A stretch of DNA of 64,000 nt from Escherichia coli (GTDB lineage Bacteria; Pseudomonadota; Gammaproteobacteria; Enterobacterales; Enterobacteriaceae), in the NCBI RefSeq assembly GCF_013315695.1, contig NZ_CP054353.1. One strand, written 5' to 3'. Below are positions 6,001 to 12,000 of this stretch, in pieces; positions within the stretch are counted from its first letter, which is position 1, and each line of letters opens with the position of its first letter. Made by a program: the position numbers.

Positions 6001-9000
6001 AATGAGCATCAACAGCGCAATCCCGCCAGCCTGACAAAGCTGATGACGGGCTATGTCGTGGATCGCGCTATCGATAGTCATCGCATTACGCCAGACGATA
6101 TTGTCACCGTGGGGCGTGATGCGTGGGCGAAAGATAATCCGGTGTTTGTCGGTTCTTCACTGATGTTTTTGAAAGAGGGCGATCGCGTATCGGTACGTGA
6201 TTTAAGCCGTGGTTTAATTGTGGATTCCGGAAATGACGCTTGTGTTGCACTGGCTGACTATATTGCCGGTGGGCAACGGCAGTTTGTTGAAATGATGAAC
6301 AACTATGCCGAGAAGCTGCATCTCAAGGATACGCATTTTGAAACAGTGCATGGTCTGGATGCACCTGGCCAGCATAGCTCGGCTTATGATTTAGCTGTGC
6401 TTTCTCGCGCTATCATCCACGGCGAGCCCGAGTTTTATCATATGTACAGTGAGAAAAGCCTCACCTGGAACGGTATCACCCAGCAAAACCGTAACGGGTT
6501 ATTGTGGGATAAAACCATGAATGTTGACGGCCTGAAAACGGGTCATACTTCTGGTGCCGGGTTTAATCTCATTGCTTCGGCTGTAGATGGGCAGCGTCGT
6601 CTCATTGCAGTGGTAATGGGGGCTGACAGCGCAAAAGGTCGTGAGGAAGAGGCAAGAAAATTACTGCGTTGGGGTCAACAAAACTTTACTACGGTGCAAA
6701 TTTTGCACCGTGGGAAAAAGGTTGGTACGGAACGCATCTGGTATGGCGATAAAGAAAATATCGCCCTGGGAACGGAACAAGAGTTCTGGATGGTGCTACC
6801 GAAAGCCGAAATTCCACATATCAAAGCCAAATATACCCTTGATGGTAAAGAACTCACCGCGCCAATTAGCGCCCATCAGCGGGTAGGGGAAATTGAACTT
6901 TACGACCGTGATAAACAGGTGGCGCACTGGCCGCTGGTTACCCTGGAATCTGTCGGGGAAGGCAGCATGTTTTCCCGGCTGAGTGATTATTTCCACCATA
7001 AGGACTGACCTTTCTTTTGCAGCAGACTGGCAGGAGTGCGAGTCTGCTCGCATAATCAACACTCATTCCTTGTGGTTTTAATATTGCAACTATACTGTAT
7101 ATAAAAGGGTCTTCCCCTGTTGTGGTGGGTGGTACATAATTGAGTGATTTTCAAACACCACACAGTACCTTTATGGTGTCTCTTTTTACATGAGAGGGAA
7201 TTCTTATGAGTGTGCCGCAAACAAAAGCTGAACTGCTTTTAGCTATTGATAAAAATTTTAGTAAATTAATTAGTTACCTCAACACAATCCCACCAGAAAT
7301 TACTTCAGATAAATCAATGGACGGACACGCCAAAGGAACGGAGATGAGTGTTCGTGATCTCGTTTCGTATCTGCTTGGATGGAATGCTCTTGTTGTAAAG
7401 TGGATCGCTTCTGATGCTAAAGGTCTGCCTGTCGATTTTCCGGAAACTGGCTATAAATGGAATCAGCTTGGCCTTCTTGCTCAAAAATTTTACTCAGATT
7501 ACAGTGAGTTAAGTTATGAGTTGTTAGTAGCTGAACTTCAGACTGTAAAAAATGAGATTGTGAACCTTATTAATGATCGTACCGATGATATTTTGTATGG
7601 AAGACCATGGTACACAAAATGGACGATGGGGAGAATGATCTCATTTAACACATCTTCGCCTTACGCCAACGCTAATGGAAGATTAAGAAAGTGGGCAAAA
7701 AATAATAATATCAGTTTAAAGTAAGCTTCAGAATGAAATTATATGGACGAAAAATCCCTCTATGCCCATATCCTTAACCTGACTGCACCATGGCAGGTTA
7801 AATCCCTTACCCTCGATGAAAATGCAGGTTCCGTTACTGTTACAGTCGGAATTGCTGAAAATACTCAGTTAACCTGTCCGACCTGCAGGAAATCCTGTTC
7901 TGTTCACGATCACCGACATCGTAAATGGCGCCACCTTGATACCTGCCAGTTCATGACATTAGTAGAAGCCGATGTTCCCCGCGTTATGTGCCCGGAGCAT
8001 GGCTGCCAGACTCTGCCTGTACCGTGGGCAGGTTCCGGCAGTCGGTACACTCTGCTGTTCGAATCGTTCGTGCTCTCATGGCTTAAAATCAGCACCGTTG
8101 ATGCGGTCAGAAAACAACTTAAACTTAGCTGGAATGCCGTTGACGGCATCATGACCCGCGCGGTTAAGCGAGGCCTGTCGCGGATTAAAAAGCCTTTATC
8201 AGTGCGTCATATGAATGTAGACGAAGTCGCCTTTAAAAAAGGGCATAGGTATATAACCGTGGTATCTGATCGCGACGGGCGGGCACTGGCATTAACCGAT
8301 GATCGTGGCACAGAGAGTCTTGCCAGCTATCTCCGTTCGCTTACTGACAGTCAGTTGTTGGCCATCAAAACACTGTCGATGGACATGAATGCGGGCTATA
8401 TAAGAGCAGCGCGTATCCATTTACCCAATGCGGTCGAGAAAATCGCCTTCGATCGCTTCCATGTGGCGAAGCAACTGGGCGAAGTGGTTGATAAAACCCG
8501 CCAGAATGAACATCCGCACCTCCCTGTTGAAAGTCGTCGTCAGGCCAAAGGTACCCGCTTCCTGTGGCAGTACAGCGACAAATGGATGACTGAGTCCCGG
8601 CAGGAAAAGCTGATGTGGTTGCGGGAACAGATGCAACAGACAAGCCAGTGCTGGACACTGAAAGAGCTGGCAAAAAATATCTGGGATCGCCCCTGGAGCA
8701 CAGAACGCAGGAATGACTGGTTGCAGTGGATATCGCTGGCGTCTGAATGTGATGTGCCGATGATGAAAAACGCAGCGAAAACCATTAAAAAACGGTTATA
8801 CGGAATACTGAATGCAATGCGTCATCGCGTCTCGAATGGAAATGCGGAGGCGCTGAACAGCAAGATCAGACTGCTGAGGATAAAGGCCAGGGGATACCGA
8901 AACCGGGAACGCTTTAAACTGGGAGTTATGTTCCACTATGGGAAACTGAATATGGCGTACTGAGTCTTCCCACCATGATCGGGGAAGACCCATATAAAAA

Positions 9001-12000
9001 CAGTATTAATGGGGGCGTCATGAACTACGAGATTAAGCAGGAAGATAAACGTACCGTTGCAGGTTTCCATCTCGTTGGCCCGTGGGAACAGACGGTAAAG
9101 AAAGGCTTTGAGCAGTTGATGATGTGGATAGATAGCAAAAATATTGTGCCGAAGGAGTGGGTTGCTGTCTATTACGACAATCCAGATGAAACACCCGCCG
9201 AAAAATTACGCTGCGACACCGTCGTGACGGTGCCGAATAACTTTACGCTCCCCGAAAACAGTGAGGGCGTCATTCTGACAGAAATTTCAGGTGGTCAGTA
9301 TGCGGTGGCGGTGGCTCGTGTAGTCGGTGATGATTTTGCTAAACCCTGGTATCAGTTCTTTAATAGCCTCTTGCAGGACAGTGCCTATGAAATGTTACCA
9401 AAGCCCTGCTTCGAGGTTTACTTGAACAATGGCGCGGAAGATGGGTACTGGGATATCGAAATGTATGTTGCGGTGCAGCCAAAACATCACTAATTCATCT
9501 CAGGGCGGTGTGTTGACGCGAAGACCACTCTTTTTTTGAAAGCGAAAAGAGTAAGATGCGCCTTTCAAATTTTTCGCTCCTGCCGGGAAATTACACTGTT
9601 CCCGGTATGTCCGTCGGATAACTCAGAGGCGCGCCTTCTGGCCGACAGATGTGTTATGAGCGCTTTTAATCTTCATTACGGAGTTTCTGCGTGCGTGCCG
9701 ATAAGTCATTAAGCCCGTTTGAAATCCGGGTATACCGCCATTACCGCATTGTGCATGGTACTCGGGTCGCGCTGGCATTCCTGCTCACTTTTCTCATTAT
9801 CCGCCTGTTTACTATCCCGGAAAGCACCTGGCCGCTGGTCACCATGGTGGTGATTATGGGGCCAATCTCGTTCTGGGGGAACGTTGTCCCTCGTGCCTTC
9901 GAACGTATTGGCGGTACGGTGTTGGGTTCGATTTTAGGTCTTATCGCTCTGCAACTGGAGTTAATTTCGTTACCGCTGATGTTAGTCTGGTGCGCGGCGG
10001 CGATGTTTCTTTGCGGTTGGCTGGCGCTGGGCAAGAAACCGTATCAAGGATTATTGATTGGGGTGACGCTGGCAATTGTTGTGGGTTCCCCGACAGGTGA
10101 AATTGATACGGCGTTATGGCGAAGCGGCGATGTGATCCTCGGCTCTTTACTGGCAATGTTGTTTACCGGTATCTGGCCACAACGGGCGTTCATCCACTGG
10201 CGCATTCAACTGGCGAAAAGTCTGACCGAGTATAATCGGGTCTATCAATCTGCATTCTCACCGAACTTACTCGAACGCCCACGTCTGGAAAGCCATCTAC
10301 AAAAACTGCTGACCGATGCCGTGAAAATGCGTGGGCTGATTGCGCCCGCCAGCAAAGAAACCCGTATTCCCAAATCGATATATGAAGGTATCCAGACCAT
10401 TAATCGCAATCTGGTTTGTATGCTGGAGTTGCAAATCAATGCATACTGGGCCACGCGCCCCAGCCATTTCGTGTTATTGAACGCGCAAAAACTTCGTGAT
10501 ACCCAGCACATGATGCAGCAAATACTGCTGAGCCTTGTTCATGCGCTGTACGAAGGTAATCCGCAGCCGGTTTTTTCCAATACGGAAAAATTGAACGATG
10601 CTGTGGAAGAGCTGCGTCAGTTGCTCGATAACCACCATGACCTGAAAGTCGTGGAAACACCAATCTATGGTTATGTGTGGCTGAACATGGAAACGGCACA
10701 TCAGCTTGAGTTGCTATCGAATCTGATTTGCCGGGCCTTGCGCAAATAATTCCTGAACTTCAGAATCATCTTGCTGCTGCTTCGATTCAGCAAGGATAAA
10801 GGGTATGATAGTGAAAAGGGATAAAAGCATTGTCATCTGCGGCAGCTATGAGTAATGTTGGCCCTAACGAATAGCGGTTGCTTAAACGAATCCGACTCTC
10901 ACATTATCAGGGGTATAAAAATGGAAACTACCAAGCCTTCATTCCAGGACGTACTGGAATTTGTTCGTCTGTTCCGTCGTAAGAACAAACTGCAACGTGA
11001 AATTCAGGACGTTGAGAAAAAGATCCGTGACAACCAGAAGCGCGTCCTGTTGCTGGACAACCTGAGCGATTACATCAAGCCAGGGATGAGCGTTGAAGCA
11101 ATCCAGGGCATCATCGCCAGCATGAAAGGTGACTATGAAGATCGCGTTGACGATTACATCATCAAAAATGCCGAGCTCTCCAAAGAACGCCGCGATATCT
11201 CCAAAAAGCTGAAAGCTATGGGCGAAATGAAAAACGGCGAAGCGAAGTAATTCCCGTTTTATTCAATGAGGGTTGCCCGGCAACCCTCATTGCTCATTGA
11301 TTCTTATCTGTGTATCACCGTCATCATTCTCATCTGAGAACCAATCGAAATTAACAACAGCCTTCTTCTGTATGCAGCAAGGCAAAAAGTTCTGTAACTC
11401 CATTGTTATTAACTGCACTGGTTACTAACACGTTGTGCGCTCCAGCTTCCCGTAACCAACTTTTCACCAAAGATATTTGTTCCATGCTGGCTAAATCTGC
11501 TTTGGTTACTACTCCAATGACCGGGTGATTCATGGCCCGGTAGGGCGTTTTTACCTCTAATTCCTGCTTCAGCGCTGAGATTCCTGCTTGTTGCCGGAAA
11601 AGCAGGCACCTGCCGTCTGAACGGTATCGATCCGGAAGCGTATCTGCGCCATATTCTGAGCATACTGCCGGAATGGCCCTCCAACCGTGTTGACGAACTC
11701 CTGCCATGGAACGTAGTTCTCACCAATAAATAAGCGTCAATACGGTGCTCCGTTGACGCTTACTTTAATCCGTTTTCTGAGCTTAGATTTTTCTGTTCCT
11801 ACCCAGACCGTGGATTTGGAATTCATTTTTTGTCAGGTCAATGCTAATCGTTAAAACGGCCATAACGCACCTCCACTGGAAGGTTTATCAGTAATATCCT
11901 ACCGTTGCTTCATGGTCGGGGCGTCCATTCCATTATTATCGGTTTTCCTTTCTGTTTATAAATGAAAACGCCAGCTGTATTCAGGCTGGCGTCAGGGGAA

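Follow-up and report, generated by a model that had tools for sequence, protein, structure and literature searches.

Is an insertion sequence that lies inside the operator of an SOS gene there by accident, or does it choose such operators? The question is raised by a copy of ISEc53, a member of the ISL3 family, that lies between dacD and sbmC in a 64,000-nt stretch of Escherichia coli contig NZ_CP054353.1 and separates the two halves of the LexA box of sbmC. The whole of this stretch is called the window below, and coordinates refer to it. About 150 further copies of ISEc53 and its relatives indicate that these elements insert into LexA operators by preference, and we consider it highly likely that the observations as a whole are best explained by LexA-box-targeted insertion of one ISL3 clade.

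The features of the locus, in their order along the window, are the following.

5836..7008, + strand: dacD, the upstream neighbour, placed by its open reading frame (ORF) and by the RefSeq annotation of identical DNA
7093..7098, + strand: left LexA half-site TACTGT, intact at the K-12 empty site
7099..7106: left 8-bp target-site duplication ATATAAAA, which is the operator spacer
7107..8991, + strand: ISEc53, ISL3-family insertion sequence of 1,885 bp, its ends fixed by the empty site
7107..7129, + strand: left terminal inverted repeat GGGTCTTCCCCTGTTGTGGTGGG, matching the right repeat at 19/23 positions
7206..7724, + strand: passenger gene of the ClbS/DfsB family (DUF1706), 172 amino acids, identified by Pfam PF08020, homology to Protein Data Bank (PDB) structures and the RefSeq name
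7743..8963, + strand: ISL3 transposase gene, 406 amino acids, with the Pfam domains Zn_ribbon_ISL3, HTH_Tnp_ISL3 and DDE_Tnp_ISL3
8969..8991, - strand: right terminal inverted repeat, able to form a hairpin with 8961-8971 that has no U-tract
8992..8999: right copy of the target-site duplication ATATAAAA
9000..9005, + strand: right LexA half-site ACAGTA, intact at the K-12 empty site
9020..9493, + strand: sbmC (DNA gyrase inhibitor), intact, 157 amino acids, placed by its ORF and RefSeq annotation

An earlier note on this DNA had described an 8-bp duplication around a 1885-bp element with ISL3-type inverted repeats, and had proposed that removal of the element would restore an SOS box 15 bp upstream of sbmC. 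The duplication is present as described, with ATATAAAA at both edges, and so are the repeats: when GGGTCTTCCCCTGTTGTGGTGGG is aligned with the reverse complement of 8969-8991 (GGGTCTTCCCCGATCATGGTGGG), 19 of the 23 positions match and the first 11 are identical. The right-end inverted repeat of ISEc53 is the complement of CCCACCATGATCGGGGAAGACCC. Excision in silico of the element together with one ATATAAAA copy yields TACTGTATATAAAAACAGTA, which holds a 16-bp CTGT-N8-ACAG core with an AT-rich spacer. The predicted empty site was then found in E. coli K-12 MG1655, where the dacD-sbmC spacer is uninterrupted and reads ...gcaactaTACTGTATATAAAAACAGTAtcaatggaggcgtcATG, with the 20-mer TACTGTATATAAAAACAGTA intact and ATATAAAA in single copy. 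The box ends 14 nt before the sbmC ATG (9020), so that the distance given in the note was essentially right, and the operator is split as it had said, sbmC being parted from everything upstream by 1.9 kb. The structural reading thus stands; what the note overlooked is that such insertion is recurrent and targeted, and that the element carries a gene for a ClbS homologue. Membership in the ISL3 family follows from PF14690, PF13542 and PF01610 on the 406-amino-acid product, from the imperfect inverted repeats and from the 8-bp duplication. The name ISEc53 rests here on RefSeq, which labels 100% identical copies "ISL3-like element ISEc53 family". This copy of ISEc53 entered through a staggered cut of 8 bp, made exactly where each half-site meets the spacer (CTGT-ATATAAAA-ACAG).

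ISL3 elements generally duplicate 8 bp of AT-rich DNA. One account of the sbmC insertion is chance: an element preferring AT-rich DNA happened to land in the AT-rich spacer of one LexA box, and the 8 bp duplicated here are indeed AT-rich. Junctions of other copies bear directly on this account. A first sample comprised contigs encoding the exact transposase and gave ten places, amounting to eight distinct sites, of which six had CTGT on one side and ACAG on the other, the duplicated 8 bp forming the spacer. These six were sbmC again, in the opposite orientation (L011), umuDC (L005), the entD-ybdK interval, where hokE lies (L003), a Mu-like prophage (L007), a lambdoid prophage (L009) and a plasmid operon resembling dinI and umuDC (L010). 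IMG/VR and metagenomes were scanned with the right end of the element alone, a pattern that contained no flanking sequence. IMG/VR supplied 29 junctions, in which the 8-mer was followed by ACAG in 25, ACAT in three and CCAG in one, and all 16 junctions with both ends had CTGT as the left flank; the metagenome scan added 99 stretches to the pool.

The pooled set consisted of non-redundant junctions of ISEc53 and of ISKox3, a 1,316-bp relative that has no passenger gene. Among 97 distinct right flanks, the four bases lying 8 bp outside the element were exactly ACAG in 79 and ACAG with at most one mismatch in 90. Of the 45 junctions with both ends, 42 had exactly CTGT on the left, 35 had both flanks perfect, 41 had both flanks with no more than one mismatch each, and 31 had a perfect 8-bp duplication. 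A random 4-mer would be expected at about 0.4% per junction, and the observed ACAG count has a log10 P of about -171. The duplicated 8-mers were composed of A and T only in 48 of the 97 cases, and a further 28 held a single G or C. Taken position by position, the target consensus is TACTGT-ATATATAT-ACAGTA, that is TACTGT(AT)4ACAGTA, which is the LexA-box consensus including its spacer. Integration in CTGT-N8-ACAG, in one register, is overwhelmingly the rule for ISEc53, for ISKox3 and for relatives whose transposases are as little as about 45% identical. Since the same register recurs in 79 of 97 distinct junctions, with CTGT in 42 of 45, and since insertions at sbmC occur in 255 genomes in both orientations and with two elements, we give the chance account practically no credence; it was rejected as refuted by the junction statistics.

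Two observations on individual copies belong beside these counts. In 14 of the 45 complete copies (L036, L096, L097, L102, L144, L177 and others) the two 8-mers are unlike each other and LexA half-sites are present on both sides. Retention of half-sites around mismatched duplications is expected if copies lying in different boxes recombine, and the unlike 8-mers suggest inversions or deletions by recombination between copies in different SOS boxes. The insertion in fimB of sequence type (ST) 131 (L002/L004/L008) occupies a degenerate pseudo-box, GATGG-ATATATAT-ACAC; the right repeat of these copies is 3 nt shorter than in L108, which makes the duplication look imperfect.

To see how often the sbmC operator itself had been hit, junction-specific searches were made of 5,426 complete E. 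coli genomes. Of these, 656 hold copies that span at least 80% of the element and count as full-length, most at 99% identity or more and labelled as ISEc53 family. The sbmC operator is split in 255 genomes (4.7%). In the orientation seen in the window there are 79 genomes with ISEc53, or 156 when the 1,316-bp type labelled "ISKox3 family" is added; in the opposite orientation the corresponding numbers are 27 and 99. Both orientations of two elements at one operator imply at least four independent events, in several genetic backgrounds. Copies are also far more alike than their flanks, for example 100% identity in the element against 56-68% in the flanks. The insertions are independent events and not one inherited insertion.

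A second account of these numbers is that integration is random and is followed by selection, or that one ancestral insertion was spread by descent or recombination. Databases hold only survivors, as this account would have it, and part of the 79 forward-orientation genomes are clonal: they belong to ST73, with Nissle 1917 and ATCC 25922, and over 3.9 kb the window matches ST73-type strains, these two included, at 100%. Selection, however, cannot produce nucleotide-exact placement between CTGT and ACAG, as any intergenic position would be equally harmless, and intragenic insertions are still flanked by CTGT and ACAG. Nor does it fit the two orientations, the two element types and the near-identical copies in unrelated flanks. 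We regard this account as very improbable, and a filter by selection only was rejected because the register and the independence of events exclude it. No orientation bias relative to the downstream SOS gene was evident in a crude test of adjacent ORFs, and the genome counts at sbmC are confounded in this respect by clonality.

The genes whose starts lie no more than a few tens of bases from the split boxes are of the kind that a preference for LexA operators would lead one to find. They belong to the DinI-like, DinD, HumD and UmuD families and further include SbmC of other genera, DNA polymerase IV, a YebG-family gene, uvrD, an integron integrase and small phage proteins of no known function. 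An SbmC homologue from another genus matches the NCBIfam SbmC model. LexA control of these SOS-type neighbours is published knowledge. Plasmids were sampled by picking five, with the flanks unseen, from a spread sample of 1,676 plasmid hits. All five sites read CTGT-N8-ACAG or CTGT-N8-CCAG, with perfect duplications, and adjoin umuD-like or dinI-like genes. Among the five is the IncX3 blaNDM-5 plasmid pNDM5-CNEC001 (L179), which has spread worldwide and on which ISKox3 (1493-2824) lies in agCTGT-ATGCATAT-ACAGta, upstream of a small ORF that is followed by an S24-peptidase (umuD-like) gene. This position of ISKox3 explains the "umuD-ISKox3" module that is drawn repeatedly in plasmid papers. As judged from the sequences of the neighbouring genes, the targets lie before classic SOS genes on chromosomes, plasmids and prophages alike.

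The same preference extends well beyond ISEc53. A generic finder of inverted repeats and duplications was noisy on distant relatives and was replaced by anchoring on the conserved termini GGGTCTTC/GGCTCTTC together with comparison of copies. The 1,316-bp group is itself diverse (80-100% pairwise identity). Relatives in Yersinia, with 73% transposase identity, occupied sites of LexA-box type in four of four cases, and the preference was shared by a relative in Providencia (64% transposase identity), by ISSoEn4 of Sodalis pierantonius, which lies upstream of uvrD, and by a relative in Klebsiella pneumoniae. At about 45-50% transposase identity, a Marinobacter relative lies in TACTGG-TCAAACGT-ACAGTA adjoining a YebG-family gene, another on a Marinobacter chromosome (L202 1106-2448) lies in CTGT-ATGGATAA-ACAG, 18 bp before an integron integrase gene, and two of three sites of an Achromobacter relative are box-like. 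Integron integrase genes are LexA-controlled. The single genome of Candidatus Symbiopectobacterium endolongispinus (L045-L077) holds about 30 copies with 70% transposase identity, a number that is likely to exceed that of its good LexA boxes; the duplications there are mostly unmatched, and CTGT-like and ACAG-like flanks are retained. The named hosts are all beta- or gamma-proteobacteria, whose LexA motif is CTGT-N8-ACAG, and among the named relatives within reach none was in a host with another LexA motif.

Two records in this set are unusual. In an Oceanospirillaceae relative (L205 1100-2447) the duplication CTGTACAG consists of two half-sites without a spacer, in a register unlike that of all other sites, and the element lies between a nucleotidyltransferase gene and a HepT-like gene. 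Close relatives (89-91% identity) also occur in records titled Chryseobacterium (L075/L076); contamination is likely, because one of these shares its sample series and left flank with a Citrobacter record (L068).

How the site is recognised can be approached from the geometry of the cut. A staggered 8-bp cut flanked by a palindrome would be the expected product of a symmetric complex reading its target, and LexA boxes would offer a conserved intergenic landing site in many copies, some of them on plasmids and phages. On balance we favour, with some confidence, a mechanism in which a two-fold symmetric transposase-DNA complex would read the palindrome directly. The alternative is guidance by LexA, the transposase recognising operator-bound LexA or the bend that LexA induces, in the manner of the tethering of Ty3, Ty1 and Tf1. 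Such guidance would account for the identity of the target logo with the LexA logo, which extends to the T/A positions on the flanks and to the (AT)4 spacer, and for the tolerated variants CCAG, CTGG and ACAT, which also occur in functional LexA boxes. It also agrees with the fact that each host found uses the CTGT-N8-ACAG motif and that most sites are real SOS operators. Against it, more than 80% of the sites are nucleotide-exact, as is typical of base read-out, and LexA contacts bases beside the cut sites, where it would be expected to hinder access. A domain search of the transposase found no LexA-type DNA-binding domain, and no LexA-interaction domain is evident in it. Two atypical sites also count against it: a K. 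pneumoniae relative (L066) used CACTGTccttcggaACAGGT, a chance site that lies within a P450-like coding sequence and has a GC-rich spacer, and the fimB pseudo-box was used as well. The nucleotide-exact placement and these two sites favour direct read-out, and we consider guidance by LexA unlikely.

It is interesting to speculate that LexA occupancy gates or guides integration, either because boxes open only on LexA cleavage or because bound LexA recruits the transposase, and we hold this to be doubtful. If it were true, the clade would move in step with DNA damage and would in effect edit the SOS regulon. With every hop one gene, one prophage anti-repressor or one plasmid mutagenesis operon would be freed from LexA, and the cargo would come to lie directly behind a de-repressed SOS promoter.

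What follows for sbmC can be read from the same DNA. The gene is SOS-inducible and is also induced in stationary phase. A LexA dimer needs both half-sites, which are now 1.9 kb apart, so that repression should be lost. A search of 7000-9100 for LexA boxes with an AT-rich spacer, one mismatch in the core being allowed, found none; nor is there one inside the element or re-created at its junctions, where it was specifically looked for. It is thus a fair inference from the sequence that sbmC has lost LexA control. To the left of the element, CTATACT at 7090..7096 (+ strand) fits a sigma-S type -10 and is presumably that of the sbmC promoter. Lying to the left of, or overlapping, the left half-site, this promoter would read in the sense direction into the ClbS-like and transposase genes, and where ISEc53 lies the other way round, in 27 genomes, it would read antisense into the element.

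The earlier note had further suggested that sbmC may be driven from within the insertion sequence. This suggestion gained no positive support. Hybrid or outward promoters were looked for at the ends of the element, and a consensus scan picked up nothing convincing, with no promoter-like site directed at sbmC in its right part, near the right end; reading by eye gave only weak hexamers. Nor did the scan pick up a terminator-like site within the element on the + strand. Transcription of sbmC would then come only by read-through or from weak internal starts. With no facing promoter and no + strand terminator, read-through, from the sbmC promoter or from the element genes, is the likelier source of transcript. 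Transcription by read-through without SOS control is the most likely state of sbmC, though we would put it at about an even chance. A somewhat smaller likelihood attaches to effective silencing of sbmC in this orientation, by polarity over 1.9 kb combined with the right-end hairpin. The missing promoter-like site at the right end and the stability of the hairpin (8961-8992, fold -15 kcal/mol) would agree with silencing; the hairpin, however, has no U-tract, the element has no terminator-like site on the + strand, and sbmC is intact in all the carriers listed. An ATG in the right end is in frame with sbmC (window 8975-9019) and would add 15 residues; it is probably meaningless, no Shine-Dalgarno sequence being evident.

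Several points weigh against the interpretation given here. About 7% of junctions have no recognisable half-site, as in L006, which is inside an aminotransferase gene. The junctions were drawn from assemblies and metagenomes and represent surviving insertions, not raw integration events, and the evidence throughout is sequence comparison. Direct read-out and LexA guidance predict nearly the same sites, so that the argument between them rests on a few atypical ones. At sbmC, the promoter was not called by a simple sigma-70 scan, its position being our reading of the sequence. Finally, ISKox3 is experimentally active and under laboratory selection entered capsule genes (PMC12057282); that report gives the duplicated 8-mers of the selected capsule mutants, the flanks not being included.

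The passenger gene gives the element a further interest. Its 172-amino-acid product is identical to PDB 5COF, deposited as "uncharacterized protein", and is homologous to the colibactin self-protection protein ClbS (PDB 6ANR, E value 1e-55). On this similarity it is a clear homologue within the ClbS/DfsB (DUF1706) family of four-helix bundles, but it is borne by an insertion sequence and not, as ClbS is, by the colibactin (pks) gene island. This copy lies in the strain background of Nissle 1917 and ATCC 25922, which we take to carry the colibactin island too, with a clbS of its own. Variants of the element carry other cargo. A 1,761-bp form (L107/L124) has, downstream of the transposase gene, a gene for a fosfomycin-resistance glutathione transferase of FosA/FosLL type, whose product scores 194.8 bits against the NCBIfam Fos_GSH cutoff of 180. 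A 2,252-bp form (L132) encodes a shikimate-dehydrogenase-like protein, and a 2,215-bp form (L113/L065) encodes, upstream of the transposase gene, a 299-amino-acid protein with no NCBIfam match. The ClbS-like protein and the FosA-type resistance gene make this cargo of clinical interest.

Neither ISEc53 nor ISKox3 is new in itself. Copies 100% identical to this ISEc53 are found widely, the well-known insertion in fimB of E. coli ST131 being one of them. In the literature the two elements figure as markers or disruptors, for example in fimB, in capsule genes and, on IncX3 blaNDM plasmids, in the "umuD-ISKox3" module. No LexA-box target for ISEc53, ISKox3 or ISL3 was found in the searchable literature, a body of text outside which most subscription journals and the ISfinder notes lie. 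Searchable papers naming both LexA and ISL3 concern other subjects, to judge by their titles and abstracts, and none in that set joins ISKox3 to LexA or the LexA box to ISL3. The LexA-box preference is thus likely to have gone unreported.

Comparable systems differ in instructive ways. IS1397 and ISKpn1 (IS3 family) and IS110-family elements insert into repetitive extragenic palindromes (REP) and bacterial interspersed mosaic elements (BIME). They likewise prefer a short, conserved, multi-copy intergenic palindrome, but they have transposases of other families and another chemistry, and their targets are structural repeats whose occupation uncouples no stress regulon. Tn10 (GCTNAGC) and IS903 have a symmetric target consensus, and IS31831 of the ISL3 family may have a palindromic target preference. 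In Tn10 and IS903, too, a symmetric transposase complex reads a palindromic target around a fixed stagger. Tn10, IS903 and IS31831 nevertheless use loose hotspots, whereas the ISEc53 clade uses an exact 8-base core in more than 80% of cases, and this core is at once a transcription-factor site. Tn7 (TnsD/attTn7) and other "safe-haven" systems likewise use a conserved harmless site in many hosts; Tn7, however, goes to one site per genome and relies on a dedicated protein to find it, while the ISEc53 clade has tens of sites, plasmids and phages among them, and no accessory protein is evident. The retrotransposons Ty1, Ty3, Ty5 and Tf1, which are tethered by host factors, are the model for guidance by LexA and differ from the ISEc53 clade, in which placement is base-exact and no evidence of a protein tether was found.

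Sequence-specific insertion sequences are thus known, and the novelty within the searchable literature is a target that is the operator of a global stress regulator. If this is true, a common family of elements systematically uncouples single genes from the SOS response, and in this way the sbmC operator has been lost from about 4.7% of complete E. coli genomes, among them those of Nissle 1917, a probiotic, and of ATCC 25922, a reference strain. It would also explain insertions beside dinI-like and umuDC-like operons on IncF and IncI plasmids, and a prophage whose LexA box is hit could have its induction locked or altered. The insertions would serve as a free natural marker of LexA boxes across species, and the transposase would be a candidate for site-directed integration tools.

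The remainder of the window holds a few features of separate interest. Three tRNA-Asn genes and, after them, a high-GC (about 0.6) island occur at window 20680-24988 and approximately 35000-64000. The island has genes for salicylate synthase, a TonB-dependent siderophore receptor, an aryl-adenylating enzyme and ABC exporters, and resembles the yersiniabactin high-pathogenicity island. Just one exact CTGT-N8-ACAG remains in the window, CTGTTGCAGGGTACAG at 37145-37160; it lies in this island, has a GC-rich spacer and is unoccupied. Rfam matches mark two small RNAs, STnc240 (1106-1180) and isrC (15556-15678).

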